This document shows positions 10,995 to 45,930 of a stretch of DNA of 64,000 bases, in pieces. This stretch comes from Gammaproteobacteria bacterium. Its GTDB lineage: Bacteria > Pseudomonadota > Gammaproteobacteria > Ga0077536. The stretch covers positions 64,274 through 128,273 of the forward strand of contig JAYODW010000003.1 of NCBI GenBank assembly GCA_038116745.1, given 5' to 3'. The notes below the pieces were generated by a model. It saw nothing but the letters and a program-made list of their open reading frames with translations, was not told the origin of the DNA and did no database searches. Numbering within the stretch: the stretch's first letter is position 1; each line of letters begins with the position of its first letter. Position numbers and translations under genes: made by a program.

Positions 10995-10998
10995 GCTG

Positions 10999-25056: not shown

Positions 25057-28000
25057 ATGCACCCTCGCTGGCAGTTCTGGATCGACCGGGGTGGTACGTT
25101 CACCGATATCGTCGGCCGCGGCCCTGACGGGCTGATCAAAACGCACAAGCTGCTCTCCGAGAATCCGGAGCAGTACCTTGATGCGGCGCTCGCGGGGATC
25201 AGAGATCTGCTCGGCCTGCGGCGCGATGCGGTGATTCCGGCGGCGGCTATTGAATCCGTGAAGATGGGCACGACGGTGGCCACTAATGCGCTGCTCGAAC
25301 GCAAGGGGGAGCCGACCGCGCTTTTCGTGACCCAGGGCTTCGGTGATGTGCTGCGCATCGGCTACCAGAACCGGCCGCAGCTGTTTGCGCTCGATATCGT
25401 GCTCCCAGAGCTGCTTTATTGCGAAGTGTGTGAGGTCCGCGAACGTCTGGGCGCACACGGCGACGTCGTCGTGCGGCTGGACGAAGAGCAGGTGCGGAAG
25501 GACCTCAAGCGTGTCTTTCGTGCCGGGCTGCGCTCGATTGCCATCGTTTTCATGCATGCCTACCGTTTTCCAGAACACGAGCAGCGCGTCGCCGCGCTCG
25601 CGCGCGAGGTCGGCTTCACCCAGGTTTCCGTGTCCCACGAGGTCAGTCCGCTGATGAAGATCGTCGGGCGGGGTGATACGACCGTGGTCGATGCCTACCT
25701 GTCTCCTATCCTGCGGCGCTATGTCGACCGGGTGGTGGCAGAACTCGGTGGCGCGCGACTGATGTTCATGCAGTCCAGCGGTGGCCTCACCGATGCGACG
25801 GTGTTCCAGGGTAAGGACGCCATCCTGTCTGGGCCCGCCGGCGGGATCGTCGGTGCGGCGCGGACCGCCGCCGCCGCCGGCTTCGAGGCGGTAATCGGCT
25901 TTGACATGGGGGGTACCTCGACCGACGTGTCGCACTACGCCGGCGAGTTTGAACGCGCTTTCGAGACCGAGGTCGCCGGCGTGCGCATGCGCGCGCCGAT
26001 GATGAGCATTCATACCGTCGCTGCCGGTGGCGGTTCGATTCTGCACTTCGATGGCGCGCGCTACCGCGTAGGGCCTGATTCGGCAGGTGCCGATCCGGGA
26101 CCAGCATGTTACCGGCGCGGCGGGCCGCTGACCGTGACTGACGCCAACGTCATGCTGGGTAAGGTGCATCCGGCATTTTTTCCACACTGTTTCGGACCGC
26201 AGGGTGACCAGCCGCTGGATGCCGAACTCGTCCGTTCGCGATTTGACGAACTCGCCGCGGAGATCCGGTCCCAGACCGGCGACGCACGCTCCGCGGAGGA
26301 CGTTGCGGAGGGTTTTATCGCAATCGCGGTCGACAACATGGCCAACGCGATCAAGCGGATCTCGGTGCAGCGCGGTCATGACGTCACGCGCTACACCCTG
26401 TGCTGCTTCGGCGGGGCGGGCGGTCAGCACGCCTGCCTCGTGGCTGACGCGCTGGGGATGGAGCGGGTCCTGATCCATCCCTATGCCGGGGTGCTATCGG
26501 CCTACGGGATGGGCCTCGCCGATGTGACCGCGATGCGCGAGCGGGCGATCGAGGCGCGCCTGGGTTCCGGTGAGAAGGCGCTGCTCGAAACGGTCATCGC
26601 TGAGCTGGCAAAGGCGGCCTGCGATGAGCTTGAAAGCCAGGGGATTGCCCCCGATGCGATCACGCTGCAGCGGCGGGTGCATCTGCGCTACGAGGGCACC
26701 GATGCAGCGCTACTGGTGCCATACAGCTCGGCTGAGGCGATGCGGGAAGCTTTCGAAACCGCCTACCGACGTGGTTTCGGGTTTCTCATGCCCGATCGCG
26801 CGCTTACGGTCGAGGCGGTCTCGGTCGAAGCGCTGGGTGGCTCCGGCCACGGCGAGGAGACCGAAGGGTGCCCGTCTGCCGCGACCGCGGACAACGCCTC
26901 GCCGGCATCAGGGACGGCTATCGCGCAGGTGCGCATGTTCAGCGGCGGCGTGGCCCACGAGGCACCGGTGTATCAGCGCGAGCAGCTTGTCGCGGGACGC
27001 GGTGTGGCCGGCCCGGCCATGATTGCCGAGGCCAACGCGACGACGGTGGTCGAGCCTGGCTGGGAGGCGGTGCTCAGTGCACGCGGCGATCTCGTGCTGA
27101 GCCGGGTGGTGGCGCGACCATCACGAGTGGCCATCGGCACCCGCGCCGATCCGGTGATGCTCGAGATCTTCAACAACCTTTTCATGTCTATTGCCGAACA
27201 GATGGGCGCCACCCTGGCGAAGACGGCTTACTCGGTGAACATCAAGGAGCGTCTCGATTTCTCCTGCGCGCTGTTCGACGCCGATGGCAGCCTGATTGCG
27301 AACGCGCCGCACATGCCGGTCCATCTCGGCTCGATGGGGGAATCGGTGAAGTGCGTGATAGCCGACAACGCCGGGCGCATGCGGCCCGGCCAGGTCTACA
27401 TGCTGAACGACCCTTATCGTGGCGGGACGCACCTGCCTGACATCACGGTGATTACGCCGGTGTTTGATGCTGCCGGCGAACGGCTGCTGTTTTATGTCGG
27501 TTCGCGCGGGCATCACGCGGATGTCGGCGGCATCACGCCAGGATCGATGCCGCCGACCAGCCGCACGGTGGACGAAGAGGGGGTGCTGGTCAGCAATTTC
27601 CTGCTCGTTGAAAACGGCGAGCTGCGCGAGCACGCCACCGTTGATCTGCTGCAATCGGGTCGCTGGCCGGCGCGCAACGTGGCGCAGAACCTGGCCGATC
27701 TGCGCGCCATGATTGCGGCGAACGAGAAAGGCGTACAGGAGCTGCGCCGCATGGTGGCGCAGTTCGGCCTTGAGACTGTGCATGCCTACATGGCCCATGT
27801 GCAGGACAACGCCGAAGAGGCGGTGCGCCGCGTGATTGAGGCGCTCAGGGACGGTCACTTCGTGTGCGAACTCGACAATGGTGCACGCATTGAGGCCTCC
27901 ATCCGCGTGGACCGTGCGCGGCGCCGGGCGGTGATTGATTTCACCGGGACCAGCACCCAGCTCGAAGACAATTTCAATGCGCCGACGGCGGTCACCATGG

Positions 28001-28674
28001 CGGCCGTGCTGTACGTGTTTCGCACGCTGGTTGTGGACGATATTCCTCTCAATGCCGGCTGTCTGAAACCGCTTGAGGTCCGGATCCCTGCAGGTTCGCT
28101 GCTCAATCCGCGTTATCCGGGCGCGGTAGTGGCGGGTAACGTCGAGACGTCCCAGTGTGTGACCGATACCCTTTACGGCGCGCTCGGCGTGATGGCGGCT
28201 GCGCAGGGCACCATGAACAACTTCACTTTCGGCAATGCCCGTTACCAGTATTACGAAACCCTGTGCGGCGGGTCCGGTGGTGGACCCACCTGGGATGGCT
28301 GCGATGCGGTGCACACGCATATGACCAATTCCCGTCTGACCGATCCGGAGGTCCTGGAGTGGCGGTTTCCGGTGCGCCTGGAACGCTTTGAGATTCGACG
28401 CGGCAGCGGCGGCGCTGGACGCCACCGCGGCGGCGACGGTACCGAGCGGCAGATCCGTTTTCTCGAGCCTATGACGGCCGCTATCCTGGCGGGTCGGCGG
28501 CGCGTGCCCCCGTACGGCATTGCGGGCGGAGCAAGCGGCGCCCCGGGACGCAACTGGGTGGAGCGCACCGATGGCCGCAGAGAGGATTTCGGGCCGACCC
28601 ATGAAGTGGAGATGCAGGCCGGGGACGTGTTTGTGATCCAGACCCCGGGCGGCGGAGGCTACGGCGCGCCCTAG
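25057..28674 (+). CDS. Fused hydantoinase A/B / 5-oxoprolinase-family ATP-dependent cyclic-amide hydrolase
   Basis: N-terminal sequence [21 protein letters not shown], a hallmark of OplAH/HyuA. The HyuA and HyuB halves sit on one ~1200-aa polypeptide. Confidence 0.8.
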
Positions 28675-28999: not shown

Positions 29000-29094
29000 A
29001 CACGACAGCGGCCGGCAGGACATGCGACACTGCCCCCACGCAACAACCGGTCGATGGGTGCGGATGTGCTCTGCGACCCGGTGAAATCCGTTTG

Positions 29095-30723
29095 ATGAAT
29101 CAGGGGTATGCCATGGACCAGCAGAAAAAAGGACAGACAGACTACGACGCGATTGTGATCGGAGCCGGCTTCGGCGGCCTGCGCATGCTGCATGAGCTGC
29201 GTGAGCTCGGATTAACCGCACTGGTGGTTGAGGCGGGAACTGACGTCGGCGGCACCTGGTACTACAACCGCTATCCCGGGGCCCGGACCGACAGCGAAGC
29301 CTGGCTCTATGCCTTTTCCTTTTCGCAGGAGATCCAGGACCGTTGGGACTGGGCCGAGCGCTTTCCCAGTCAGGGGGAGGCCCTGTCTTACCTGCAGTAC
29401 GTCGCCGAACACTGCGATATGCGTAAGGACATCCGGTTCAGTACCCGGGTAACCGGTGCGTGTTACCAGGAGTCTGACGACCGCTGGGAGGTGGCCACCG
29501 ATGACGGTAAGACCCTGACGTGCCGTTATTTCATTACCGCGACAGGACCCCTGTCGACGCCGTATCGACCGAACTTTCCCGGGATCGATGAGTTCCGCGG
29601 TGAGTGGTACCTGACGGGCAACTGGCCGAAAGAGCCGGTGAGCTTCAACAATAAACGGGTCGCTGTGATCGGCACCGGCGCCACGGCCGTCCAGGCGATC
29701 CCGCTGATCGCACAGACCGCGGCGGAGGTGACCGTCTTCCAGCGCACGCCGAATTACGTTCTGCCGGCGCGTAACGCGCCGCTGAGCGACCACGATCGTG
29801 AGCGCTACCGCAAGAACTATGACGCTATCTGGGCGCGCACCCGTGAGCAGGCGTTTGCGTTCGATTTCAATGACGCCGGGCGTAACCTGGGGGATGTCTC
29901 ACCGGAGGAGTGCCGCCGCATTCTCGAGCGCGGCTGGGAGATCGGTACCTTCCGTTTCCTGTTTGAGACCTTCGACGACATTTTCGTCGACGAGCATGCC
30001 AACGAAGTCGTGTCAGAGTTCGTGCGCGACAAGATCCGCTCGATCGTGACCGATCCCGAAACCGCCGAGCTGCTCTGTCCTAAGGATCATCCCCTCGGGG
30101 CCAAGCGTCCGCCGCTGGGACACTTCTATTACGAGACCTTCAACCGCGACAACGTGAAGCTGGTCAATATCCGTGACAACCCGATCACCGGGATCAGCGA
30201 GAAGGGTGTGCTGGTGGGCGATGCAGAGTACGAGGCGGACCTCATCGTCTTCGCCACCGGATTCGACGCCGTGACGGGCACGCTCAACCGGCTCGATATC
30301 CGTGGCCGCGATGGTGTGGCGCTGAATGACCGGTGGCTGGGCGGACCGAGTACCTATCTCGGGATCACGGTGGACGGCTTTCCGAACCTGTTCATGGTCG
30401 GCGGCCCGCAGACGCCTTTCGCCAATATCCCGGTGATCATCGACGGCTGCGTCGACTGGATCGGGCGCGCCATCAAGCATCTGCGCGACTCCGGCAGCGC
30501 GGTCATGGAGCCGCGCTCAGAGGCCGTGAGCAGCTGGGGCCAGCATATGAACGAGCTGGTGAATATGACGGTGCTGCCGCGCTCTCAGGGCTCCTGGTTC
30601 ATGGGCGGCAACATACCCGGCAAGCCGCGTGCGGTGCTCTTCTACTTCGGCGGCGCCGGTAACTACCGCAAGGAATGCGACGCGGAAGCGGAGAGCGGGT
30701 ACCCGGAATTCAAGGTCGCCTGA
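29095..30723 (+). CDS. Baeyer-Villiger-type flavin monooxygenase, paralog 2
   Basis: AIVIGAGFGG, GGTWYYNRYPGARTD, fingerprint FRGEWYLTGNWP (Leu in place of His), VIGTGATAVQ. An alternative ATG at 29113 is preceded by AGGGG. Confidence 0.8.
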   Translation: MNQGYAMDQQKKGQTDYDAIVIGAGFGGLRMLHELRELGLTALVVEAGTDVGGTWYYNRYPGARTDSEAWLYAFSFSQEIQDRWDWAERFPSQGEALSYLQYVAEHCDMRKDIRFSTRVTGACYQESDDRWEVATDDGKTLTCRYFITATGPLSTPYRPNFPGIDEFRGEWYLTGNWPKEPVSFNNKRVAVIGTGATAVQAIPLIAQTAAEVTVFQRTPNYVLPARNAPLSDHDRERYRKNYDAIWARTREQAFAFDFNDAGRNLGDVSPEECRRILERGWEIGTFRFLFETFDDIFVDEHANEVVSEFVRDKIRSIVTDPETAELLCPKDHPLGAKRPPLGHFYYETFNRDNVKLVNIRDNPITGISEKGVLVGDAEYEADLIVFATGFDAVTGTLNRLDIRGRDGVALNDRWLGGPSTYLGITVDGFPNLFMVGGPQTPFANIPVIIDGCVDWIGRAIKHLRDSGSAVMEPRSEAVSSWGQHMNELVNMTVLPRSQGSWFMGGNIPGKPRAVLFYFGGAGNYRKECDAEAESGYPEFKVA

Positions 30724-31742: not shown

Positions 31743-33254
31743 CTACAGGCCCAGTTTTTCGTGCAGGCCGATACGCTGCACCTTGCCAGTCGCCCCCTTG
31801 GGGATCTCTTCCAGGATAAGTACCTGCCGGGGCACTTTGAAATCCGCCAGGCGCACGGCGGCGAACCCACGCAGCTCGTCCGTGCTCGCCTGCGCGCCTT
31901 CGCGCAGGACGACGGCCGCTGCGACCTCTTCGCCGAGCTTGTCATGTGGCACGGCGAAGGTCACCGCCTGGGCCACGGCCGGATGGTCGAGCAGGACCTC
32001 ATCGACCTCCCGCGGACTGATCTTCTCGCCGCCGCGGTTGATGATCTCCTTAAGCCGTCCAGTCAGGGCGAGATAGCCGTCGGCATCGATGACACCCTGA
32101 TCCCCGGTGCGGAACCATCCGGCGCTGAACGCGTCTGCGTTCGCGCCCGGATTGCTCTCGTAACCGGCGGTCACGTTAGGGCCACGGATCACGACTTCTC
32201 CGATCTCTCCGTCGGCGAGGAGCTGCCCGTCGGCATCCATGATGGCGACTTCCGGACCGGCGGGCAGTCCGACTGCGCCGGGCTTGCGCGCCGCCGGGGG
32301 CAAAGGGTTAGAGGTCATCTGATGCGCGGCCTCGGTCATGCCGTAGGCCTCGATGACCGGACAGCCGAAGGCGGCTTCCAGCTCCGCCATGACCTGCGGC
32401 GGCAGCGAGGAAGAGGACGACCGGATGAGGCGCAGCGCGAGGCGGCTGATCAGCTCGGCCTGACGCGCTGCGCGGGCAAGGATCGCCTGGTGCATGGTGG
32501 GGACGGCGGTGTACCAGGTGGGCGCGGCGTCCTCCAGCCAGCTGAACACGCGCAGCGCGTTGAAGCCCGGGGTGCAGTACACCGAGCCACCAGCGGCGAG
32601 GCTCGACAGCACGGCCGCGATCAGGCCGTGAATGTGGAACAGCGGCATGATGTTCAGGCAGCGATCGTCCGGCGTCAGCGCCAGCGAAGCGCCGATGTGA
32701 CGGGCAGACGCGCAGATGTTGGTGTGGCTCAGAGGCACGATTTTCGGGCGTGAAGTCGTGCCGGAGGTGTGCAGCACGAGGGCGGTGTCCTCAGGCGCCG
32801 CGGGACCACCATGGCTGATCGTGCGGTCGCCGGTGGGCAGGGTGAAAGCGCCGGCGGGCGCGTCTTCTGCAACCGCGATTTCATACACCGGCACACCGAG
32901 TTCGCTGGCGACGTCGCGCGCGGGCGACGTGCTGCCGGTTTCGATCAGCAAGGCCCGGGCGTTCAGATCCTCCAGATAAAACCTGAATTCCTCGGCACGA
33001 TAGGCCGGATTCAGCGGTGCCGTGGTCGCGCCCGCGGCCACGGCAATAAACGCAGCTGCCATTTCCGGACCGTTGGGCAGCACGATCGCTACCCGATCAT
33101 TGCGGCCGATCCCCAGCCGGTTGAGCCCGGCGATGGTGTCAGCGATCAGCGCGCGCAGGGCGGCGTAGTGCAGCACAGGGCGCTGCGGCGCACAGAGCGC
33201 GACAGCGTCATCTGGTGCTGCGTGCAGCAGTTCGCGCAGGGTGACGGCGGACAT
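31743..33254 (-). CDS. AMP-dependent synthetase/ligase (acyl-CoA synthetase family)
   Basis: AMP-binding motif TSGTTSRPKIV and a C-terminal lysine region (PKGATGKVQR). 503 aa. Confidence 0.85.
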   Translation of the reverse strand: MSAVTLRELLHAAPDDAVALCAPQRPVLHYAALRALIADTIAGLNRLGIGRNDRVAIVLPNGPEMAAAFIAVAAGATTAPLNPAYRAEEFRFYLEDLNARALLIETGSTSPARDVASELGVPVYEIAVAEDAPAGAFTLPTGDRTISHGGPAAPEDTALVLHTSGTTSRPKIVPLSHTNICASARHIGASLALTPDDRCLNIMPLFHIHGLIAAVLSSLAAGGSVYCTPGFNALRVFSWLEDAAPTWYTAVPTMHQAILARAARQAELISRLALRLIRSSSSSLPPQVMAELEAAFGCPVIEAYGMTEAAHQMTSNPLPPAARKPGAVGLPAGPEVAIMDADGQLLADGEIGEVVIRGPNVTAGYESNPGANADAFSAGWFRTGDQGVIDADGYLALTGRLKEIINRGGEKISPREVDEVLLDHPAVAQAVTFAVPHDKLGEEVAAAVVLREGAQASTDELRGFAAVRLADFKVPRQVLILEEIPKGATGKVQRIGLHEKLGL

Positions 33255-33666
33255 GGCAGGGGCGGGCTCCTATGCAGATTAGATGGGTGCTGTGCCGTGG
33301 CGCCGGCGGGGCGCACGATAGCAATCACTGTTGTGCTTGTCAGCGGAATACCAACGCTGGGACGGTGCCGGCCGGACGCGTAAGTGGGTGAGAAAATCAG
33401 CCATCAGGCCTTTCCCCCTTCGGGCACGCTGCATCGTGTTCTGCGCTCCGACAATTCTCTGTGCGGAATGGTGCCAGGACTCTGTGCGCCGCCCCTCGCT
33501 GTCCGTATGTCTTGTCCGGGCAGGATGGCTGCCCGAAAGGACCGGCTGCATCCGACTTACCGTACCGGCCTTTTCGTCTGATACCTCTCTGCGGTCGTGT
33601 TGCCCTATAAGCCGAGCTTTGAGGACCCCGTGCGAACGCGCAGCGGGACCCTGTTCGGGTGAACTC

Positions 33667-34416
33667 TCAGGCCCGGGTGGCAGAAATAATGACCGCCGGT
33701 GGCTGCCTGAGAAAAGGCGCCCAGAATGCGCTGTCGTCAGCACCGTCGCGTGCAGGCTCAAGGCGTAGCGGGTGGAAGGTGATCTCCTCGAACCCTGCAT
33801 CAGCGAGGCCCGCAGCGTAGGCTGCTGCCGGCAGGTAGTAGTTCTCTACGTCGAGCGAGATCCCGTCGAGGTGAAAGCGGAACACCAACGGCGCGCCTTC
33901 GACGGCCGACGGCGGCAGCAGTACCTCAAAACCATAGGGCCGGAAGTCTGGCGGCGTTGCCTGCCAGGTATACATTTCAGGGTTGGTAATGAGCTGCACA
34001 CAGCGGCCGCCGTGACGCACCTGGCGCGCCAGCCCGTCGCACATGCGGGCCAGCTCAGCGCGATCCCGCGCGTAGACCAGCAACCAGTTCGATGTCACCA
34101 GATCGCAATCGCGCTCGGGCCTTGTGGCGCGGGCGTCTTCAACGGCGTAGTCAATGTCAAGCGGTTGCGCAGTCTCTGCGTCCCGCGCGAGCGCGATCAT
34201 ATCCGGCGAGAGATCGAGACCGAGGATCCTGCGCGCGCCGGCCCGTTTCAAGGCGCGCGTCAGCCAGCCGTCGCCGCAGGCACAGTCGACGACAGAGAGT
34301 CCGGTCACGTCACCGACGATCTCGAGCATGGAAAAAAGCTCTGAACGCTCGCGCCAGGCCTGCGCTTTGGCAGCGCGATAGCGCGCGGCATTCTCCTCGT
34401 CGTAGCGGGTCTTCAT
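33667..34416 (-). CDS. Class I SAM-dependent methyltransferase
   Basis: SAM motif I VVDCACGDGWL and LDLSPDM. Start at ATG 34416 (MKTRYDEE). Confidence 0.7.
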   Translation of the reverse strand: MKTRYDEENAARYRAAKAQAWRERSELFSMLEIVGDVTGLSVVDCACGDGWLTRALKRAGARRILGLDLSPDMIALARDAETAQPLDIDYAVEDARATRPERDCDLVTSNWLLVYARDRAELARMCDGLARQVRHGGRCVQLITNPEMYTWQATPPDFRPYGFEVLLPPSAVEGAPLVFRFHLDGISLDVENYYLPAAAYAAGLADAGFEEITFHPLRLEPARDGADDSAFWAPFLRQPPAVIISATRA

Positions 34417-34825
34417 GGTTGCTTGCTCGCAGAAAAGGGACAAACGGCGCCCCGGCGCAGGCCAGTGTCGTCCTCTCGAACAAATAGGTCCAGCAGGGGG
34501 CACGCCCCATGAGGCGTTTTGCTATGTCCTTACGCCTGACGCGAGCAGAGGGCTCGCACTTTCGGGGGCTGTGCAGCACGCCGAGAAGGCCAACCGCGAG
34601 ACCGGAGGCCGATCCTGGAGGGTAGCGGAGGCAGCGTTGCACAATCAGCGCGGTGAAGGCCTGATGGTATAAACGCGTAGCTTCGCTCGGTCTTGGGATT
34701 TATCCTGTGCTCCGGGCAGCGTGGCCGATTGGAGCACTAGTGACTGGCACGTTTGACGCCAAACCCAGGAAGCAACTGCCGCGATTTTTCTTCCTCGCTA
34801 TTCCGACTATGAGGACCGTTCTGTT

Positions 34826-36100
34826 TTGAACCCAGGCGCACTGCTGAAACACCCGCTGCTTGTCGCAGGACTGGTCGCGGTCGTCATCGCCCTAGTGATG
34901 TTTCGTCCGCGTGCCGCGGATGAGTCGCCAATCCGGATCGGGATCCTGCACTCGCTGACCGGCGCCATGGCGATAAGTGAGCGCAGTATGGTCGACGCCG
35001 AGCTGCTGGCGGTCGAGGAAATCAATCGTGGTGGCGGTCTGCTCGGGCGACAGGTCGAGGCCGTTGTCGCTGATGGTCAGTCGGACTGGCCGACCTTTGC
35101 GCGAGAGGCAGAACGACTGATCTCGGAAGAGAAAGTGGTGACGGTGTTCGGCTGCTGGACGTCGGCCAGTCGAAAGACCGTGAAGCCGGTGTTTGAACAG
35201 CATGATCACCTGCTGGTTTACCCCATGGCCTACGAGGGCCTCGAACAATCTCGCAATATCGCCTACATCGGCGCCGCACCTAATCAGCAGGTCACGCCGG
35301 CCCTGACCTGGGGCGTCGAAAATCTGGGCAAGCGCGTGTTCCTGGTGGGTTCGGACTACGTGTGGCCGCGCACCATCAACGCGATCATGAAGGACATGCT
35401 GCCAAGCCTCGGCGCGGAGCTGGTCGGCGAGAGCTACGTGTTTTTCGGGAGCACGAAACTCGACCAGACCGTGGCAAAGATCAAGGCTGCCGCACCGGAC
35501 TTGGTCATCAGCTCAGTGGTGGGCGACAGCAATCCCGCGTTTTATCGTGCGCTGCGTGAAGCCGGCATCAGCGCTGAATCGACACCCGTTCTGACCTTCA
35601 GCATCGGTGAGTCGGAGCTGCTAGAGATGGATCCGCTGGATGTCAGCGGGCACTTTGCCGCCTGGAGCTATCTGCAGAGCCTGCCGGGGCAAACCAATCA
35701 GGAGTTCATCGCTCGATTCCGCGAGCGGTTTGGCGCTGAGCGGGTAACCAGCGACGTGATTGCTACCGCCTACAGCAGCGTCCTGCTGTGGGCACAGGCA
35801 GTGGAACAGGCGCAGAGCATCGAAGTCGATCAGATCCGTACTGCGCTGTACGGGCAGAGCATCGCAGCGCCGGAAGGGATCATTTCGGTGGATGCAGCGA
35901 CCGGGCATGCATGGCGCTCGATCTCGATCGGCCGAATCAATAAGTCGCGCGGTATCGATCAGGTATGGGCGCTGGAGCGACCCATTCGCCCGGTGCCTTT
36001 TCCCAGCAGCCGCACGCCGGCAGCCTGGCGCATGTACCTGGACCACCTGTATCAGGCCTGGGGCAACAGCTGGGCTAACCCGGAGGAGAGCGCGCTGTGA
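34826..36100 (+). CDS. Periplasmic ligand-binding protein of the LivK/UrtA/AmiC family (Peripla_BP_6)
   Basis: Signal/TM leader followed by [39 protein letters not shown], which is UrtA/AmiC-like. Probable TTG start. Its stop overlaps the next gene's GTG (GTGA). Confidence 0.7.
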
Positions 36101-38469
36101 AGGATATTCCAGGGCTATCTCTTAATCCGCTCAGTGAAAATTTTGCGGCCTCACCGCAGCTGACGCTGGAAGATCTTGAACGCCTGGCGGATGCCGGGTT
36201 CAAGAGTGTGATCAACAATCGCCCTGATTTCGAGGGCGGCCCCGAGCAGCCAACCAGCGCGCAGATGGCGCGTGCTGCAGAAGCGCTGGGGCTGCAGTTC
36301 GCGGCCCTGCCGGTGGTCATGAGCCAGATCAACGATGCCGACGTCGCGGCTTTCTCCAGGCTGTTGAAGACCTTGCCCGCGCCTGTCTGCGGCTACTGCG
36401 CAGTGGGTGGTCGCGTGAAAAAACTCTACGAGCTCGCGCAGGCCCGCCGGCGCCCCATCGTTCCACTCGCCCGGCGTCTGGTCCTGGGCATGGTGCTGAT
36501 AGCGGTGCTCGCCTGCTCAGTGCTCGCGCTGGTGGTTGACAGGATGTCGGGGCGGTCGCTCGAGCAGACCTCCCTAAAGAATCTCCTCGCGGTGAGTCAG
36601 CGGAAGGTCAGCCGTCTTGAGGAGTTCGCGTCGGAACTGCTGCGCGGCGTGCATGCCGCGGGTCACAGCACAGAGCTTCAGCAGCTGGTCGCCGATCTGC
36701 AGCGTTCCGCAGACGATGGCAATGACCTGCGGGATACGGCAACTGTTCGGGCACAACTGAAGTCCTATCTCGAGCGTACCTCCGCGCTTTATGGTTTTGT
36801 CAACGCCCTGGTGGCAGCGCCTGATGGCGAGATCCTGTTTGCGCTGAATAGCCAGAGCGCAGAACTTGATGTCGGGGGGAACCTACAGCAGGGCGCTCTT
36901 GAAGATTCGGAGCTGGCGCGTCTGTTCGCGAGGACCAGGGCGCTGAAGCAGGAGGAGATATCCCGCTATGGGGTCTATTCCGGGATGGTGGCGCCTGCTG
37001 TTTTTGTGGCCGGCCCGGTCCTGCATCGCAACCATCTTCAGGGCGTGTTGCTGCTTCAGATCGACAACATGGCGCTGCGGCGCATCCTGTTGGATTACAC
37101 CGGGCTGTACAGCACCGGAGAGGTGTTGGTTGCGCAACGTGACGGAGACGCCGCCGTGCTGGTTGCCCCGACCCGCTTCCGGCCTGGAGCCGCTTTTGCG
37201 GAAGAATCCCGCGTGCCGCTGGGATCGGAGCGCGCGCTGCCGGTGCAGAAAGCTGTGCTGGGAAGTCGATGGTATGGGCTGTACGTTGACGAGCGCGGTG
37301 AGCAGACCATTGCGATTGCGAGCTACTCGCCCGCGTTCGAGTGGGGCATCGTGGTCAAACAGGATGTCGACGAAGCGCTGGCGCTGGTGGACGAGCAGAG
37401 ATCGATGACCGCCTACGTACTGCTCGCGCTCTCTCTGCCGATCGTTCTCGGCGCCCTTGTTTTCACGCGCAGCATCACGTCCCCGGTCCGGTTTGCGGCT
37501 ACCGCCGCGGAGCAGCTGCAGGCTGGTGATCTGACAGTTGCTGTCTCAGATCCGAAGCGCAACGATGAGACGGGTGTGCTGATCTCCGCGCTCAAGTCGC
37601 TGGTCACCTATCTGCGCACGCTGGTGAGCAATTTCAAAAGCGTCAACGCGACCATCGGCGCGGCGACCGAAAGCATGGTCGCCACGACCCGGGTGCAGGA
37701 AGAAGGAGTCCAGACCGTCAGCACATCGAGCGCTGAGATTGCCGCCAGCGCGCGGCAGATCGCTGCAACGGCGGAGGCGCTGCTGACATCAATGCGCGAA
37801 GTGGCGGACCGACTGCGGGAGACCGCCGAGCTGGCTACCAAGGGGCGGGACAACATCGCCAGCATGAACAGCAACATCAGGGACATGTCGGATGGCAGCG
37901 AGGCGATCAGTGGACGACTGGACGTGATTGCACAGCGGGCGGAGAAAATTACTGAAGTGGTCAGCACCATCACCAAAGTCGCGGACCAGACCAACATGCT
38001 GTCCCTGAACGCCGCCATTGAAGCCGAGGTTGCCGGAGAAGCGGGCCGTGGCTTCGCTGTGGTGGCGCAGGAGATCAGACGTCTGGCCGACCAGACCGCC
38101 GTCGGCACGCTGGATATCGAGCAGATGGTGAGGGAAATGCAGGCCGCGGTAGCCGGCGGCGTGCAGGAGATGGCTGCGTTTGAAAACATGGTCGAGAGCC
38201 GTGTGCAGGCCTCGGTGGCGACCTTTGAGCAGCTGGGCCTGATCATCGAGCAGGTCGAACTGCTGCAGCCGCAGTTTGAAACCGTCAATGAAGGAATGCG
38301 GTCGCAGGCGGTCGGCGCTACCCAGATAGCCGGTGCTATGAGTCAGTTGACCGACGTGGCTGCCGGCACCCGCGATTCGATCGCCGAGCTGATTAAGATC
38401 ACCAACGAAATGAATGCGGCGGTGGCGGTTCTCAATTCGGCGACACTCCGCTTCCATACCGGTGACTAG
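36097..38469 (+). CDS. Methyl-accepting chemotaxis protein with an N-terminal DUF442-like (Blh/sulfur-transferase-like phosphatase) domain
   Basis: The C-terminal MCP signalling domain [33 protein letters not shown] is highly conserved. HAMP and TM segments are present. The N-terminal ~125 aa ([18 protein letters not shown]...CGYCAVGGR) resemble DUF442. GTG start overlapping the upstream stop. Confidence 0.7.
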
Positions 38470-38695
38470 CGCGCTTCTTGATGACCTGTCGTCGTCACCA
38501 TTTTCGAGCTCGCTTGGCGCTGCAGCCCGTTTTTTCCTGTTGACTGCCAGCGTTGGTGGTCACCCGACCCGCACCTTTCTCCCGCTGACTGCTCGCCCTG
38601 ACTTTGAGTGCCGTGGTCAGCGCGGCGTGCTTCTGCATGAAGCGACTCATGCCCGGCGACTTCGACCGGCTCTAACTCCGATGGCTGATTGATCT

Positions 38696-39535
38696 TTGGA
38701 CGCGGTCGCCGCTCTGGCCGAGCATCTGCCGCTGGTGCTCACTCTCTGCGCCGCGGGGGCGGTCGCGGGTATGACCGCGGGTCTGTTCGGCAACGGCGGT
38801 GGCTTTGTCATCGTGCCCGCGCTGGTGACCTTGCTGGATGCTTACGCTGGCACTCAGCGGGAGCTGATTTACACCGCGATAGGGACCTCTCTTGCATGCA
38901 TCACGCTCACGACCGCGCGGGCGGTGCTGGCGCACCGGCGGCAAGGCGCGGTTGATTTCGGCGTCGTGCTCAGCTGGGCCGGGTGGGTATTTCTAGGCGT
39001 GCTGGCCGGGCTCAGCGTGGCCTCTCACGTCAATGCCAATGCGCTGTTTTTTTTGTTCAGCGGGGGGGTATTGGTTTACTCGGTGTATTTCCTCTTTCCT
39101 GACCGTTTCAATCTGCGCCGCAAACAAGCGCAGATGCCGGCGGGGATCGCCCGCGCCGCACTCGCAGCTGCACTCGGGGCATTTTCTTCGATCCTCGGGA
39201 TCGGTGGCGGGACGATTACCGTGATCACCATGGTTACCTGTGGGCGTCCCATACATCAGGCTGTGGCGACGGCGTCGGGCGTCGGTTTCGTGATCGGCTT
39301 GACCGGCGCGCTGGGTTTTCTCTGGATGGGCCTGGGACAGCCGAGCGCGGTGTTCGGCTCGATCGGCTATATGAACGTGCCTGCGTTGCTTGCGATAAGC
39401 AGCCTGTCTCTCGTGACAGCGCCGATTGGCGCTGCCTGGGCGCACCGTCTTGATGGCCGCAGGCTCAAACAGATTTTTGGTGTCTATCTGCTGCTGGTGT
39501 CATGCTCCATGTTCTATAAGGGCTTGACTCTTTAA
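38696..39535 (+). CDS. TauE/SafE (TSUP, DUF81) family anion exporter
   Basis: Eight TM helices with an internal repeat (GxGGG) typical of TSUP permeases. Confidence 0.75.
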   Translation: MDAVAALAEHLPLVLTLCAAGAVAGMTAGLFGNGGGFVIVPALVTLLDAYAGTQRELIYTAIGTSLACITLTTARAVLAHRRQGAVDFGVVLSWAGWVFLGVLAGLSVASHVNANALFFLFSGGVLVYSVYFLFPDRFNLRRKQAQMPAGIARAALAAALGAFSSILGIGGGTITVITMVTCGRPIHQAVATASGVGFVIGLTGALGFLWMGLGQPSAVFGSIGYMNVPALLAISSLSLVTAPIGAAWAHRLDGRRLKQIFGVYLLLVSCSMFYKGLTL

Positions 39536-39578
39536 CGTGACTGCCGGTGGATCCGAGCGACTGACGGGAGGACTGAAA

Positions 39579-40718
39579 ATGGACGGAATAAACGACAGAC
39601 GCATCTTTCTCAAAGGCGCTGCAGCGGCGGCCGGATTGTCGGCGCTGTCGGGATTAGTTGGCGCGCGGGCAGTGACGGACGGTTCTGACATCCTCGTGCC
39701 TGAGCCCGGGATCGCCAAGCTCAACGCTAATGAAAACCCGACCGGACCCAGCGCCAGGGCCAAAAAAGCGATCGCGGAAGCTGCGCAGTACAGTGCGTAC
39801 TACGTTGGAGAAAACGTCAGGCGGCTCAAGTCAATGATTGCAGAGCGTCACGGTTTGAGTACCAGCAACGTTGCGCTCAGCTCAGGTTCCAGCGGGGTAT
39901 TGACCTATCTGGCTGTGGCGGCATCTCGCCGCGGTGAGATCCTCTGCGCCGATCTGTTCTGGGACACCACTGCCAAGGCGGCAGAGCGACAGGGGGCGGT
40001 GCTTCGTCGGCTGCCGAAATCTCCGGACCTCAGCATCGACCTTGGACAGATGGCGGCTGGGATCACGTCCGCCATCGCGCTGGTGCATGTCACCAATCCG
40101 AACAATCCCACCGGCCTGATGCAGGAGCCCGAGGCGTTACGGAAATTCTGCCGCACGGCGGCGGCCAAGACCTACGTACTGGTCGACGAGGCTTACAACG
40201 AGGTCACTGACGATCCGGCACGAAACTCGATGGTCGATCTGGTCCGTGAGGGTCACAACGTAGCGGTCGCGCGCACCTTCTCCAAAATCTACGGGCTTGC
40301 CGGCCTGCGCATCGGGTACATGCTCGGTAGTGAGGAGATCATCGAGCAGGTCAATCAATTCAGTCTGGGAGACTACGCGCTCAATCAGGCGGGTGTTGCG
40401 GCGGCGCTTGCCAGCTATAACGACGAGGCGTTTATTCGCTATTCCAAAGCCATCATCCTGGAGGGTCGCGGGATGATTGAAGAAGCGGTGCGCTCACACG
40501 GGCTGCGCTCTCTGCCGTCACAAACCAATTTTTTGTTTGTGGATCTGGGTGGGCTCAATGCGGAGACTTTCCGCGCGGAGATGGCGCAGCGTGGCGTTCT
40601 CATTCGAGGCATTTATCGGGACTACACCAACTGGTCCCGCGTCAGCATGGGGCGCCTGTCCGACGTGCAGAGCTACGTCGACGTGCTGCCGCAGGTGCTG
40701 GAAGCGATGAACGCCTGA
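39579..40718 (+). CDS. Class I/II PLP-dependent aminotransferase (HisC family) with a twin-arginine (Tat) signal peptide
   Basis: MDGINDRRIFLKGAAAAAGLSALSGLVGARA is a Tat-type leader. The mature part has LNANENPTGPS and the conserved YGLAGLRIGY region. GGGAGG RBS 7 nt upstream of the ATG. Confidence 0.75.
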   Translation: MDGINDRRIFLKGAAAAAGLSALSGLVGARAVTDGSDILVPEPGIAKLNANENPTGPSARAKKAIAEAAQYSAYYVGENVRRLKSMIAERHGLSTSNVALSSGSSGVLTYLAVAASRRGEILCADLFWDTTAKAAERQGAVLRRLPKSPDLSIDLGQMAAGITSAIALVHVTNPNNPTGLMQEPEALRKFCRTAAAKTYVLVDEAYNEVTDDPARNSMVDLVREGHNVAVARTFSKIYGLAGLRIGYMLGSEEIIEQVNQFSLGDYALNQAGVAAALASYNDEAFIRYSKAIILEGRGMIEEAVRSHGLRSLPSQTNFLFVDLGGLNAETFRAEMAQRGVLIRGIYRDYTNWSRVSMGRLSDVQSYVDVLPQVLEAMNA

Positions 40719-41997
40719 ACAAAAGGACGTGAAGCACCAGGGACCTCCAGCCCAGCGGTAGCCTGGCGTGGCCGCCGCGCCTGATGCAGGCGGCAGTGCA
40801 AACGATGCGGTCTTGCGGTGTGCGATGGATTCGAAGGCTTGCTTTTCCTGGGTGAGGTTTCGCGACAATTCGCGCAGGATCGGCTGGCGTCCGCGAGGGC
40901 TTTTGCGGCCATCAGAGCGGTCTGTCTGCCAGGTCAGGCACTTTCCTGAGAAATGACAAGGACAGACTGGTATCGGTGCTGTGTCATTGTCTGTGAAGAC
41001 GTTTCAGGAGATTCGTTTCAGCAGCCTGGCGCGGCGTCAAGCCTCCGGTTTTGCATCCAATCAAAAGCCACTGGCGACTAGGCTTCGGGTTACCTTCAAC
41101 CAGGTCCTGAGTCTCGGTCCCGAGGATTAACCTGTAGCCCTCGTGCGTCTACTACCAGATTGAAAGCCAGATCAGTCGTCGGCGCTGAGTTTTTTCAGAT
41201 ACTGACGTGCGGGGGAAATCGCGAATATGGTTCATTTATTTACTGAAAAGGAATTAATTAATAAGCCGTGCAGCGGTTATCCATCATAGTTAGAGCGGAT
41301 GAGGGCGCAGACGAGCGAGCGAAGATGGGCAGCTTTGGGTGCGCGTGACTGAAGCGCAGGGGGATTCTCGACGCTTTGCATGCGGAAGCAGTATTGCGAA
41401 TCCCAGCCTGTCGTCGCGACTGAGGCCGGTCGATTTGCGAACAAGTGGCAGATGAAAGAGCCGCTCAAAATAAAGTACCGAACAGGAAATTTATTACAAA
41501 TAAAACGCGCTCTTGCTGCTTCAAAGGATGTCTGACGTGAGAAGTGTGTTGGAAGCGTTTTGAACTGCTTACGTTTTTGAAACCCACGCCCGGGTGGCTG
41601 CGGTCGCATTCACGGAGGCAGCCCGTCGGACGGAGAGAGCCGTGGCGACGCCGCCTACCTGGACGCAGACGCGAGCAGAATCCAGTGGACTCCAGGCTGC
41701 CTAATGGATACAGCGCCTGTCGGCGCTGAATAAGCACGTGCAGCCGCGTGTCCCCGCGGTCCTCGCGTGTAGTGCGCGCAACCTTATGGGACGTCCATGC
41801 ACTCGAGCTTCGCTGTGGACAAGCGCACCTCCAAACAGCTGCAGCAACACCCATCAGACCATCGCATCAGGTCATGGCATTCATGTTCTGGACACGACTG
41901 GCGCGAGACCGCACACGCCGGTTGTGGAGACAGGGATCTCCTCTGATGAGAGCTCCGCGGAGATCGGAGGCGATTGACCAGACCCCGACGAAGAACT

Positions 41998-42895: not shown

Positions 42896-43684
42896 ATGCA
42901 GGTCACTCAGCTCGGGCGGGTCTTCGTGAAGGCAACGCGCTTTCTGCATCCGGCAGAGGTGGCGGTGGACGCGGACGGGATCCGGCATGACCGGTCTTTC
43001 GGTCTGGTCGAGGCTGACGATCGCTTTGTCGGCTCGGCGCAACACAGCGAGTTCATTCCACTCACCTTTGAGCTATCGGACGACGCTTCCGAGCTCCAGC
43101 TGACGTGGCCGGATGGCAGTTCCCTGTCGGGTCCAGCAGCGGCAACCGGGCGCGCTTTTGAAATTGATCATCACGGACTCCGCGGGGTAAGCGTGCGCGA
43201 GGTGGCGGGTCCATGGCAGGAGGCGCTTTCTGCGTTTGCCGGGCGTCCTCTGCGGCTGGTGCGCTGTCTTTCTGCCGGCGGCGCTATCGACGTGCTGCCC
43301 GTTACCCTGACGACCACCGGCTCATTGCGGCGCCTCGCCGGAGTGGTCGGTGCGGAGGTCGATGCAGCTCGTTTTCGCGCCGGTATCGTGCTGGCGAACG
43401 ACGAAGCCCACGCGGAGGACGGCTGGGACGGACAGCAGCTGCGGGTGGGCGATGTGTTGCTGCGTATGCGCACTGCGGTGCCGCGTTGCCAGATCACCGG
43501 CTTCAATCCGGCATCCGGCATTGCAGACCAGGCCGTGATGCAGGCGCTGATCAAGTATCGGGAAAAAGTACACCTGCCGGACGGCATGCTGCCCGACTAC
43601 GCGACGCCGGGTTTTGCTTCTTATTGCGAGGTGATCGAACCGGGGCGGATTAAGCTCGGAGACAGCGCCGAACTGCTTCCCTGA
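42896..43684 (+). CDS. MOSC-domain protein (YcbX-like, MOSC_N beta-barrel plus MOSC)
   Basis: The conserved cysteine is in its usual context (AVPRCQITGFNP). 262 aa. Confidence 0.7.
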   Translation: MQVTQLGRVFVKATRFLHPAEVAVDADGIRHDRSFGLVEADDRFVGSAQHSEFIPLTFELSDDASELQLTWPDGSSLSGPAAATGRAFEIDHHGLRGVSVREVAGPWQEALSAFAGRPLRLVRCLSAGGAIDVLPVTLTTTGSLRRLAGVVGAEVDAARFRAGIVLANDEAHAEDGWDGQQLRVGDVLLRMRTAVPRCQITGFNPASGIADQAVMQALIKYREKVHLPDGMLPDYATPGFASYCEVIEPGRIKLGDSAELLP

Positions 43685-43803
43685 AAAGCATCTTTCCTGA
43701 CTTCTGCGCTCGGGGTGGGCGCTTCGCGAGCGCGCCACCGGGCCCTGTTGCTAGACTCACAGATGAAACGCAGCAGCGCCGTCACCGCGGAGGGGAGGAA
43801 ACG

Positions 43804-45930
43804 ATGTCAGCAGTTATGAAATCTACGCATCACGGAGGCTGTCCCCATGACTGCCCCGATACCTGTTCCATGGTCTTTGAAGTTGAGGACGGCAAGCTGG
43901 TGGGTGTACGGGGAAATCCCGAACATCCGATGACCCGCGGCGGTCTCTGCGTCAAGCTGCGTGACTACGAGAAGCGCCACTACCACCCGGAACGTCTGCT
44001 TTATCCGATGCGCCGCACGGGGCCCAAGGGCAGCGCGAGTTTCGAGCGTATCAGCTGGGAGGAGGCGCTCGATGCGATAGAAAACCGATGGCGGGCCATC
44101 ATTGACCAGTATGGTGCGCAGGCCATCGCGCCTTACAGCTACCTGGGACACCAGGGGCTGGTCCACGGTCTGAACGGTGGCGATGCATTTTTTAATCGCC
44201 TCGGCGCGACCGTCATGGAACGGACGTTCTGCGGTGAGGGATCGGCCACCGCGTGGCTCATGACCTACGGTCCGAGCGGCGGACTTGACCCTGAATCATT
44301 CCGGCACGCCCGCTACATCGTGATCTGGGCATGCAATAGCGTGAGCACCAATCTGCATCACTGGCATATCGTCAAAGATGCGCAGAAATCCGGCGCTAAA
44401 GTCGTCGTCATAGATGCCTACGCGTCGCGGACCGCCAAAGAGGCTGACTGGCATATTGCGCCCCGGCCGGGAACTGACGGCGCGCTGGCGATGGCGCTGA
44501 TCAACGTGCTGTGCGCCGAGGGTCTGGTCGATCGGGACTATGTCGACAACTACACTGTCGGCTTTGACGAGCTCGCCGAAAGGGCCGCGGACCGCACACC
44601 CGAGTGGGCGGCTGATATCACCGGGGTCCCGGCCGAGGAGATCCGCCGACTCGCGCGGGAGTACGCCGCAACCCAGCCCGCGGCCATGCGTATCGGTGTG
44701 GCGCTTGAACGGCATCGTGGCGGAGGCCAGACCATCCGCGCAGTGTGCTGTCTGCCGGCGCTGACCGGCGCCTGGCGGCACGTCGGTGGCGGGATCCTGG
44801 CGATGCCCGTGTGGGAACACCCCTACAACTTCCAGGCTATCTGTCGACCGGACTGGATCCCGTCCGGGACCCGCGTCGTGAACAACCTGCAGCTGGGGCG
44901 CCTGTTAACGGGTGAGATCCCGCTCGACCCGCCCATTAAATCGCTCATGTGCTGGAACTCGAACCCGGTTACACAGGCGCCGGAAGGCGACCGGATCGTA
45001 GCCGGGCTTGAGCGTGAAGATCTGTTCCTCGTCGTGGCTGAACACTTCGTCACGGATGTGGCAGCCTACGCGGACATCCTGCTGCCGGCCTCAATGGGTG
45101 CCGAGATGGAAGACATCATTCTGTCCTGGGGCCACAACTACCTGACATATAACGCGAAATGCGTCGAGTCGCCGGGTGAAGCGGTACCTAACCGTGAGAT
45201 CTTCCGCCGTCTCGCTGCGCGGATGGGCTTCGATGAACCGGAATTCCAGTGGTCGGACGGGGAGTGCCTCGAACATTTTGTTGACTGGGCATCGCCGGCC
45301 TGTGCCGGTTTCGATCTGACGCATCTGCGCGAGCACGGGTTCGCGCGTCTGGCGCTGGGCGGTGCTGACGAGCGCGCGCCGCATCGTGAAGGCGCGTTTC
45401 CAACGCCCTCCGGTAAGTGTGAGTTCAAGTCGAGCATTGCCGCGGGCGGTAACTTCGTCGCGCCGCCGTTCCGTCAGATGTACGAGCACCTGCAGGGCGC
45501 AGAGCCGCTGGATGCGCTGCCGGACTACGTGCCTTCGCGCGAAAGCCCGGCGAGTAACCCGGCGCTGGCCAGGCGCTATCCGCTCAACATCGTATCTCCC
45601 AAGAGTCACGGTTTTCTGAATTCCTGCTACGCCAACATGACTCAGAAGATCCGCGGTCAGGGCGAGCAGTTCGTCATGGTCAGTCCTGTGGATGCCGCTG
45701 CCCGCGGTATCAGGGAGGGGGATGTGGTCCGCGTGTTCAACGATCGCGGTGCGTTCGAAGCCGCAGCGCAGATTACCGCTGATGTGAATCCCGGTGTGGT
45801 GGTTGCCACCCTGGGCTATTGGCGACAGCTGAACCGCGGCACGGTCAACGTCGTCAGCTCAGCAGAGTTTGCCAATATGGGGCACGCGCCGAGTTTTTCT
45901 GACAACCTGGTCGAAGTGCAGAAAGCCTGA
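43804..45930 (+). CDS. Molybdopterin-dependent oxidoreductase (MopB superfamily) with N-terminal Fe-S cysteine cluster; cytoplasmic
   Basis: HHGGCPHDCPDTCS...LC cysteine motif followed by the MopB molybdopterin-binding domains. No Tat signal. Confidence 0.7.
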   Translation: MSAVMKSTHHGGCPHDCPDTCSMVFEVEDGKLVGVRGNPEHPMTRGGLCVKLRDYEKRHYHPERLLYPMRRTGPKGSASFERISWEEALDAIENRWRAIIDQYGAQAIAPYSYLGHQGLVHGLNGGDAFFNRLGATVMERTFCGEGSATAWLMTYGPSGGLDPESFRHARYIVIWACNSVSTNLHHWHIVKDAQKSGAKVVVIDAYASRTAKEADWHIAPRPGTDGALAMALINVLCAEGLVDRDYVDNYTVGFDELAERAADRTPEWAADITGVPAEEIRRLAREYAATQPAAMRIGVALERHRGGGQTIRAVCCLPALTGAWRHVGGGILAMPVWEHPYNFQAICRPDWIPSGTRVVNNLQLGRLLTGEIPLDPPIKSLMCWNSNPVTQAPEGDRIVAGLEREDLFLVVAEHFVTDVAAYADILLPASMGAEMEDIILSWGHNYLTYNAKCVESPGEAVPNREIFRRLAARMGFDEPEFQWSDGECLEHFVDWASPACAGFDLTHLREHGFARLALGGADERAPHREGAFPTPSGKCEFKSSIAAGGNFVAPPFRQMYEHLQGAEPLDALPDYVPSRESPASNPALARRYPLNIVSPKSHGFLNSCYANMTQKIRGQGEQFVMVSPVDAAARGIREGDVVRVFNDRGAFEAAAQITADVNPGVVVATLGYWRQLNRGTVNVVSSAEFANMGHAPSFSDNLVEVQKA

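Follow-up and report, generated by a model that had tools for sequence, protein, structure and literature searches.

What does a chemoreceptor sense if its gene overlaps that of a periplasmic binding protein and its N-terminus resembles a sulfurtransferase, and where does the signal go? This question is raised by a pair of genes in a 64,000-nucleotide (nt) stretch of a gammaproteobacterial genome of the Ga0077536 lineage (assembly GCA_038116745.1, contig JAYODW010000003.1, forward strand, positions 64,274 to 128,273). We call the whole stretch the window, and coordinates of features refer to its first letter as position 1. The first gene encodes a binding protein and the second a methyl-accepting chemotaxis protein (MCP) with an N-terminal DUF442 domain. 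A first-pass annotation of the window had posed two functions as alternatives: indirect sensing through the binding protein, or a cytoplasmic persulfide or redox input fused to the receptor. Indirect sensing has gained strong support from synteny, but the idea that the two functions exclude each other did not survive. Comparison with related loci indicates that the binding protein and the dCache sensor domain of the receptor are an older and widespread unit, with MCP or histidine-kinase outputs. DUF442 may plausibly add a persulfide or redox sense, which would be restricted to a single small clade of Gammaproteobacteria.

The case for sensing through the binding protein is strong because the synteny holds in several phyla and with more than one kind of output. 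A scan of species-representative genomes yielded 80 loci, which we compared by tblastn. Synteny was counted in the 36 non-redundant loci that share the periplasmic domain of the receptor and have enough upstream sequence. In 32 of these 36, a Peripla_BP_5 gene lies 0–300 nt upstream on the same strand. The sensor-sharing loci come from Gammaproteobacteria, many Planctomycetota (including Ca. Kuenenia), Acidobacteriota and Verrucomicrobiia. Even a hybrid histidine kinase that carries this sensor domain (P0012, locus L088; 36% identity) has the same gene upstream, with overlapping codons. In the window, the stop codon of the binding-protein gene and the start codon of the MCP gene overlap as GTGA, as the first-pass annotation had reported in its claim of co-translation, and this overlap points to translational coupling of the two proteins. 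The four nucleotides are kept as GTGA or ATGA in loci L001, L003, L007 and L090, with ATGA in Luminiphilus. Synteny across phyla and outputs, the codon overlap, the absence of a nearby transporter and the precedents described at the end of this text together argue that the binding protein is a dedicated co-receptor. We have met no paper describing such a two-gene unit of binding protein and dCache sensor, and the literature was not searched for the pair specifically.

The receptor has the class I topology of a transmembrane MCP, with a HAMP and a signalling domain and two transmembrane (TM) segments predicted to flank the sensor. Hydropathy finds exactly two hydrophobic segments (residues 129–147 and 438–456), and five Lys/Arg residues stand directly before TM1. 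Because two membrane passes separate DUF442 from the HAMP and MCP domains, DUF442 is expected to be cytoplasmic, on the same side of the membrane as these domains. The order of TM segment, periplasmic region, HAMP and MCP domain had been claimed before and is borne out by Pfam and hydropathy. What can be added is that the periplasmic region is a dCache sensor domain, as judged from its modelled structure. The Pfam profile dCache_1 gives 22 bits over residues 154–420, under its gathering score of 45, and is on record for the related clusters P0008–P0013. An AlphaFold2 model of residues 150–440 has a predicted local distance difference test (pLDDT) score of 87.7 and a predicted template modelling (pTM) score of 0.83. 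Foldseek matched it to DvhD, McpH, DctB, Mlp24, PctA and Tlp3 in the PDB (E 1e-8 to 3e-10, template modelling scores of about 0.6–0.7) and also recovered Dret_0059 (5ERE). The arms of the MCP hairpin are estimated from the full-length model to be about 140 residues each; we used this model (pTM 0.40) solely for secondary structure and domain boundaries. The N-terminus was checked against profile hidden Markov models, and both scores lie over the curated cutoffs: PF04273 (BLH_phosphatase/DUF442) matches residues 12–116 with E 1.8e-19 and 70.5 bits (gathering score 26.1), and TIGR01244 reaches 87.7 bits (cutoff 85.85). The sole solved DUF442 protein, 2f46, matches with E 3.7e-13 and with the catalytic Cys aligned. 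The domain is modelled as an alpha/beta fold (block pLDDT 66–90).

We combine these observations into one model, which as a whole we hold with moderate confidence: a single sensory unit with an indirect periplasmic input, an output of the alternative cellular function (ACF) type, and DUF442 as a second, intracellular input. Translational coupling would keep the amounts of binding protein and receptor at a constant ratio, and the N-terminal segment of the binding protein may anchor it in the membrane. The binding protein would take up a small ligand, probably short-chain amide-like and not urea, and dock on the dCache domain. The resulting conformational change would run through TM2 and HAMP to the MCP hairpin and so control the CheA of a Wsp-like ACF pathway. 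In the nearest relatives the response regulator is a REC-PP2C phosphatase that would act on a STAS/RsbW-like partner-switching module, giving a regulatory output. DUF442, placed N-terminally before TM1 in one small gammaproteobacterial clade, would most likely serve as the second, intracellular input. Its Cys101 may accept sulfane sulfur as a persulfide, or may be oxidised in some other way, and the modified domain would then bias signalling. We favour the analogy with the PAS domain of Aer, in which DUF442 would contact HAMP side-on.

Several points weigh against this model. Four of the 36 sensor-sharing loci have no binding-protein gene upstream, and the dCache domain might recognise a ligand directly. 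A tblastn search found no che, STAS, RsbW or REC-PP2C gene in the 64-kb window; for this organism, the probable assignment to an ACF pathway with partner-switching output, and not to the flagellar motor, is based on orthologues and on the similarity of the signalling domain. Throughout the MCP-fused clade, the Arg and the Ser/Thr that follow the Cys in stand-alone DUF442 enzymes are consistently replaced by Ala/Gly and Val/Leu. This change in the loop may reduce or abolish sulfur-transfer chemistry. The linker between DUF442 and TM1 contains prolines, hence rigid helical coupling is unlikely, and the full-length model, with its pTM of 0.40, is silent on a contact between DUF442 and HAMP. We also treat the adjacency of a TauE gene to the receptor (see below) as coincidental and draw no real support from it.

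What could the DUF442 domain do in a receptor? The DUF442 domains of Xylella Blh and Cupriavidus SQR have been shown by experiment to be sulfurtransferases, in which the Cys forms a persulfide from thiosulfate, glutathione persulfide (GSSH) or polysulfide (PMC5823870, PMC8533005, PMC9163753). The enzyme loop reads CRTGTR, and both the Cys and the Arg at the end of the loop are required (PMC8533005). The nearest relatives of the window domain are stand-alone TIGR01244 proteins of about 113 amino acids (aa), mostly from Burkholderiales, with 50–57% identity. The loop of the stand-alone enzymes is C-R-[ST]-G-x-R and that of the receptor clade is C101-[A/G]-[V/L]-G-G-R106. Cys101, Gly104 and Arg106 are invariant in this clade, and the C-X4-R length is kept. 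The pattern fits a predicted sulfane-sulfur acceptor whose properties have been adjusted, perhaps so that the modification lasts longer and can serve for sensing; it is also compatible with loss of the chemistry. In the window protein, Cys98-Gly-Tyr-Cys101 (36388–36399) forms a CxxC motif that includes the catalytic Cys. Cys98 occurs only here and in a 97% identical relative (P0001), and the position is Ile, Val or Leu elsewhere in the DUF442-MCP family. We reject the CxxC motif as a family feature; it is lineage-specific.

The boldest version of this idea is that DUF442 is a true cytoplasmic reactive-sulfur sensor that works through Cys101 and is integrated with the periplasmic amide signal and a PP2C/STAS/RsbW output. 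We offer it tentatively and think it rather unlikely in this complete form. If it were true, this would be the first known chemoreceptor-type transducer with a sulfurtransferase fold as input module; nothing relevant came up when the literature was searched for chemoreceptors that carry rhodanese or persulfide-sensing domains. It is just as doubtful, in our judgement, that DUF442 provides no signal input at all. In that case it would be either an active sulfurtransferase for which the receptor is no more than an anchor, or a degenerate module that serves structure or dimerisation, and the receptor would have a single periplasmic input. The departure of the loop C-A-V-G-G-R from the pattern of active enzymes would be expected for such a domain, as would a flexible, proline-containing linker, and relatives without the domain are far commoner and evidently functional. 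A domain without a role in signalling is harder to reconcile with the invariance of Cys, Gly and Arg and the integrity of the domain across lineages that are only 46–60% identical. Purifying selection on it is as strong as on the remainder of the protein, and input domains, the PAS domain of Aer for one, typically have such a fixed site directly before TM1.

Two other genes in the window touch on sulfur. A TauE/SafE sulfite-exporter-family gene (38696–39535, plus strand; PF01925 E 1e-42) lies 226 nt downstream of the DUF442-MCP gene, and Blh, a DUF442 protein, shares an operon with TauE in the bigR system. We considered TauE as a conserved partner of DUF442 and rejected it: it stands beside the receptor only in the lineage of the window (L006, L007), not in the other DUF442-MCP loci. 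The neighbouring aminotransferase gene and the upstream methyltransferase gene are likewise limited to this lineage. The class I/II aminotransferase gene (39537–40718, plus strand; PF00155 E 6e-44) begins 2 nt past the end of the TauE gene, and its product has a twin-arginine-type N-terminus, NDRRIFLKGAAAAAGLSAL, which suggests an exported pyridoxal-phosphate enzyme. The second sulfur-related gene belongs to the SBP56 family (PF05694 E 2e-43) and is followed by a di-haem cytochrome c peroxidase/MauG-type gene (together 8813–12210, plus strand). The SBP56 family includes bacterial methanethiol oxidase, and such an enzyme would release H2S. The gene lies about 25 kb from the receptor, and the H2S would be a possible internal source of reactive sulfur.

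Where the signal goes can be judged from the operons of relatives. Locus L089, whose receptor (P0010) is without DUF442, has the order binding protein, MCP, CheW, CheR with tetratricopeptide repeats (TPR), CheW, CheA-REC and CheB. CheA is present in 19 sensor-sharing loci, and in five of these 19 (for example L013 and L041) there is a strong REC-PP2C match as well. Among 45 loci that share the signalling domain alone, CheA was found in 32 and REC-PP2C in 22. In the Luminiphilus-type loci, a CheA (Hpt-HATPase-CheW-REC), CheB, REC-PP2C (SpoIIE) and STAS genes are followed by two divergent genes and then by genes for a Zn-ribbon protein, an RsbW-like kinase, the binding protein, the DUF442-MCP and a protein of about 371 aa. 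A CheR-TPR that occurs alongside multidomain response regulators, PP2C types among them, is the recognised hallmark of ACF pathways (PMC3447774). Anti-sigma antagonist and serine-phosphatase genes also occur in the stage-1 F7 class of Che systems, in another gene order (PMC7184735). Since most of the related MCPs head Wsp-like operons, several of them with a REC-PP2C partner switch, we expect a regulatory output that does not concern motility. For the same reason, chemotaxis assays would probably be negative.

It is nevertheless conceivable, if quite unlikely, that the receptor is an ordinary flagellar chemoreceptor, which would use the binding protein to direct chemotaxis to urea or amides, in the way that maltose-binding protein works with Tar, and feed a motility CheA. 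The canonical two-TM domain architecture would suit such a role, binding-protein-dependent taxis is well known (PMC8050422), and the gene pair adjoins no ACF cluster in the window. However, the related receptors head Wsp-like operons (with CheR-TPR, CheA-REC and, in several, REC-PP2C), and no related locus combines a plain CheY with flagellar genes. In addition, the hairpin region hardly differs from that of the Luminiphilus orthologues, whose genes stand next to the PP2C/STAS/RsbW module. Hence, we retain the ACF-type output as the likely one.

Some further observations concern these operons and signalling genes. The protein of about 371 aa, which has no Pfam match, is encoded directly after the DUF442-MCP at 10417–11535 in L001, 10329–11444 in L003 and 12421–13536 in L090. 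The Zn-ribbon, RsbW-like kinase and 371-aa protein genes of the Luminiphilus-type loci have no counterpart in the window. The two divergent genes, on the opposite strand between the STAS and RsbW-like genes, encode a Xan_ur_permease-family transporter and a protein with a faint TrkA_N match (L001 2530–5638, L003 2450–5535 and L090 4533–7641, all on the minus strand). The window itself encodes two large cyclic diguanylate (c-di-GMP) proteins on the plus strand: PilZ-DUF1631-GGDEF-EAL with 1256 aa (59856–63626) and PAS-PAS-PAS-GGDEF-EAL with 1108 aa (21350–24676).

What does the binding protein bind? It was first labelled LivK/AmiC-type, and the AmiC half of this label is apt, but the LivK half is not: the protein matches Peripla_BP_5 (Pfam, E 4.9e-147) and belongs to the AmiC/UrtA branch of type I binding proteins. 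Its closest structures are 8tg1 (E 5e-116), the cyanobacterial UrtA structures 7s6e, 7s6f and 8hic (about 1e-90) and AmiC 1pea (2e-53). The pocket of 8tg1 carries the urea signature according to our alignment; a literature search on PDB 8TG1 did not find its paper. The structure of Prochlorococcus UrtA with urea has nine pocket residues, W120, S122, Y141, Q144, E146, Y190, F192, N246 and S274 (PMC10392092). Ser122, Gln144, Tyr190 and Asn246 make six hydrogen bonds with urea, and mutation of any one of the four reduces or abolishes binding (PMC10392092). Aligned to the UrtA pocket (W S Y Q E Y F N S in 8hic), the window protein has W111, S113, Y132, A135, E137, Y178, W180, V232 and S259, and AmiC has Y S Y P E Y Y V T. 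Hence, the Ser and Tyr of the four urea-hydrogen-bonding residues are kept and two are replaced, Gln144 by Ala135 and Asn246 by Val232. These two side chains hold one NH2 group of urea in UrtA and are Ala and Val in the window protein. Because two of the four are replaced and the pocket is AmiC-like there, a ligand other than urea is expected; acetamide is a ligand of AmiC. With moderate to low confidence, we suggest that the half of the pocket that recognises an amide is kept and that the other half is apolar, which would suit a short-chain amide-like ligand, not urea.

The Ala/Trp/Val(Ala) signature is found in about 30 sensor-linked binding proteins, in all phyla sampled and including the one linked to a kinase. 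Three loci (L016, L039 and L040) retain the full urea signature Gln/Phe/Asn, and four (L011, L012, L018 and L020) have a divergent pocket, for example L/S/H/x/E/D/S/V/R. This suggests that the family of binding proteins with receptors has diversified in ligand specificity. The window protein has one N-terminal hydrophobic segment (residues 6–24), a signal peptide or a membrane anchor, which ends just 8–10 residues ahead of the folded domain. In the gammaproteobacterial binding proteins this segment has no obvious small-x-small cleavage site, and it may be an uncleaved anchor.

Could the binding protein simply be the substrate-binding part of a urea or amide ABC transporter that is encoded elsewhere, with its place beside the MCP an incidental matter of operon packing? 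We consider this very improbable. It is true that the protein scores 451.8 bits on the UrtA model TIGR03407 (NCBIfam) and that its closest structures are urea-binding proteins. But the score is under the equivalog cutoff of 492.75, and two of the four residues that hydrogen-bond urea are replaced. No ABC-transporter gene is annotated within 10 kb of the gene pair in precomputed Pfam tables, and no permease or ATPase gene of the urtBCDE type was found among the 32 window ORFs (open reading frames) scanned. Nor does incidental packing account for adjacency to the sensor domain in 32 of the 36 loci, which span several phyla and more than one kind of output.

The last question is whether the fusion of DUF442 and MCP is real. 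Nine clusters (P0001–P0009, clustered at 90% identity) share PF04273, HAMP and MCPsignal; they emerged when 5.8 billion proteins were searched, and their sources are independent metagenomes and metagenome-assembled genomes (MAGs). They have 46–97% identity and are 772–794 aa long. Over the DUF442 codons, the ratio of nonsynonymous to synonymous substitution rates (dN/dS) is 0.07 between the window and L007. The proportions of nonsynonymous and synonymous differences (pN and pS) are 0.26 and 0.75 between the window and L001, and 0.16 and 0.83 between L001 and L003. These values indicate purifying selection on the DUF442 codons like that on the remainder of the gene. The segment 36097–36480, in which a frameshift had to be considered, is part of the full-length architecture in all nine clusters and has pN far below pS, so that a frameshift is excluded. 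The alignment of DUF442-MCPs contains no conserved internal start, and the N-terminal domain and the MCP are not separate genes. That a stand-alone DUF442 gene and an MCP gene were joined by a frameshift, a lost stop codon or a mis-assembly, or that an internal start is used, would account for the stand-alone relatives of about 113 aa and for the ATG and GTG at residues 131–132, but we discount it almost entirely, given an uninterrupted ORF of 790–794 aa in at least nine independently sampled clusters, a Met131 that is unconserved and lies inside TM1, and pN far below pS over the junction region. Homologues, alignment and codon selection thus rule out all versions of the artefact.

The fusion is real but rare, and the added domain is probably functional. 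In an exhaustive HMMER search of 1.84 billion representatives at 50% identity, only two matches (P0005 and P0008) aligned to DUF442 from the N-terminus. About 40 of the best 150 matches start at query residues 113–129; they have the sensor and signalling domains, without DUF442. Gammaproteobacterial relatives without DUF442 are also found (L010, L013 and L023). In the genome scan, the nearest genomes with the gene pair were Luminiphilus and unclassified gammaproteobacterial MAGs, at 48–56% identity. The simplest history would be a single gain of DUF442 in a small gammaproteobacterial clade, which comprises this organism, Luminiphilus and freshwater MAGs. The coordinates of the gene pair and its features are given in Table 1.

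Table 1. Features of the binding-protein and transducer genes, in window coordinates.
Feature	Position	Strand	Basis
Shine-Dalgarno-like GAGGA, 10 nt 5' of the binding-protein TTG	34811..34815	+	sequence reading
Binding-protein gene, 424 aa, TTG start	34826..36100	+	ORF list
Codon Ala135, at the position of urea-binding Gln144 of Prochlorococcus UrtA	35228..35230	+	alignment
Codon Trp180, at the position of UrtA Phe192	35363..35365	+	alignment
Codon Val232, at the position of urea-binding UrtA Asn246; Val in AmiC too	35519..35521	+	alignment
Shine-Dalgarno GGAGGA, 9 nt 5' of the MCP GTG, within the 3' end of the binding-protein gene	36082..36087	+	
GTGA, overlap of binding-protein TGA stop and MCP GTG start	36097..36100	+	
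Transducer (MCP) gene, 790 aa, GTG start; DUF442-dCache-HAMP-MCP	36097..38469	+	ORF, profiles, homologues
DUF442/TIGR01244 domain, predicted cytoplasmic, residues 12–116	36130..36444	+	PF04273, TIGR01244, 2f46
Active-site loop Cys101-Ala-Val-Gly-Gly-Arg106	36397..36414	+	alignment
TM1, residues 129–147	36481..36537	+	hydropathy; model helix 124–150
Predicted periplasmic dCache domain, residues about 150–437	36544..37407	+	AlphaFold2 model, Foldseek
TM2, residues 438–456	37408..37464	+	hydropathy
HAMP, residues 456–507	37462..37617	+	PF00672 E 3e-7, 31.1 bits, gathering score 25
MCP signalling domain, residues 605–754	37909..38358	+	PF00015 E 6.7e-29
MCP hairpin tip, about residues 645–649	38029..38043	+	helix break in model

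The linker between DUF442 and TM1 (residues 117–128) is Arg-rich and non-helical in the model. A search for RNA families and riboswitches around the gene pair (33000–41500, at a permissive threshold) found none, and a sigma-70 promoter scan of 34300–38800 returned zero sites. Terminator-like matches in the same region, 34300–38800, were rejected, as they fall inside coding sequence and look like chance. Elsewhere, the window contains four genes for flavin monooxygenases of the FMO-like/Baeyer-Villiger type (18913–20559, 29092–30723 and 45982–47643 on the plus strand, 52417–54081 on the minus strand), a gene for a 1217-aa hydantoinase A/B fusion (25021–28674), and a pair of MOSC and molybdopterin oxidoreductase genes (42896–45930).

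The locus is of interest for three reasons. First, binding protein and dCache sensor make up a two-gene unit that is widespread, anammox bacteria included, and its Ala/Trp/Val signature in place of Gln/Phe/Asn predicts a non-urea ligand. Second, the unit would tie Che-type ACF pathways with REC-PP2C output to a defined extracellular input; to our knowledge, the signals of ACF pathways are mostly unknown. Third, the rare DUF442 fusion is a natural test of a sulfurtransferase fold as a sensory input, which bears on how reactive sulfur is sensed.

How does this unit compare with known systems? Binding proteins that act through a dCache-like domain have precedents in BasB/BasT, CosB/CosT and LuxP/LuxQ (PMC8050422). 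In Halobacterium salinarum, the gene of a solute-binding protein adjoins that of the dCache-like transducer BasT or CosT, and sensing is indirect, as we propose here; BasB belongs to Peripla_BP_6, related to the Peripla_BP_5 family of the window protein. In contrast to the window system, BasT and CosT are archaeal, linked to taxis and served by another binding-protein subfamily, and they have neither an N-terminal cytoplasmic domain nor an association with a Wsp-like or PP2C pathway. In LuxP/LuxQ, a periplasmic binding protein likewise acts through a tandem-PAS/dCache sensor, but the output is a histidine kinase, and the binding proteins of both LuxP and Dret_0059 come from other subfamilies. 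In a published list, LuxQ appears among the Cache domains without a ligand, and the dCache domain of Dret_0059 spans residues 322–562 (PMC8694187). For the binding protein, the closest comparison is with UrtA and AmiC, with which it shares the Peripla_BP_5 fold and a pocket scaffold of W-S-Y-x-E-Y. Where UrtA has Gln144, Phe192 and Asn246, the window protein has Ala, Trp and Val and AmiC has Pro, Tyr and Val. Unlike UrtA, the window protein has no urtBCDE genes nearby and stays below the equivalog cutoff. AmiC, by contrast, is without the N-terminal export or anchor segment of the window protein and has AmiR, not a membrane receptor, as its partner. The N-terminal part of Dret_0059 is presumably a solute-binding domain, which would make this protein a covalent fusion of both partners, and we take it to be a c-di-GMP-related protein by its output.

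On the output side, the operons of the relatives have the order of Wsp (WspA-F, WspR) and other ACF systems, MCP-CheW-CheR(TPR)-CheW-CheA-REC-CheB followed by a multidomain regulator. They differ from Wsp in that this regulator, where found, is REC-PP2C with STAS/RsbW-like partners and not REC-GGDEF, and in that the input is a binding protein with a dCache domain; the pair in the window, moreover, is not clustered with che genes. For the intracellular input, Aer offers a parallel, as a cytoplasmic sensory domain stands at its extreme N-terminus before the membrane segment and acts on HAMP. The domain of Aer is a PAS domain with FAD, and Aer has no periplasmic domain; a contact between DUF442 and HAMP would follow Aer by analogy only. 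With the DUF442 sulfurtransferases (Blh of Xylella and Agrobacterium, the N-terminal domain of Cupriavidus SQR, stand-alone proteins and 2f46), the window domain shares the C-X4-R loop length, the Cys and the loop-end Arg. It differs from them in having Ala-Val instead of Arg-Ser/Thr at loop positions 2–3, in the lack of an sqr/pdo context, and in being fused to a transmembrane receptor and not part of a sulfide-oxidation enzyme. The locus thus extends known themes, namely indirect sensing through binding proteins, MCPs with several inputs and ACF pathways, and leaves the existing concepts standing.

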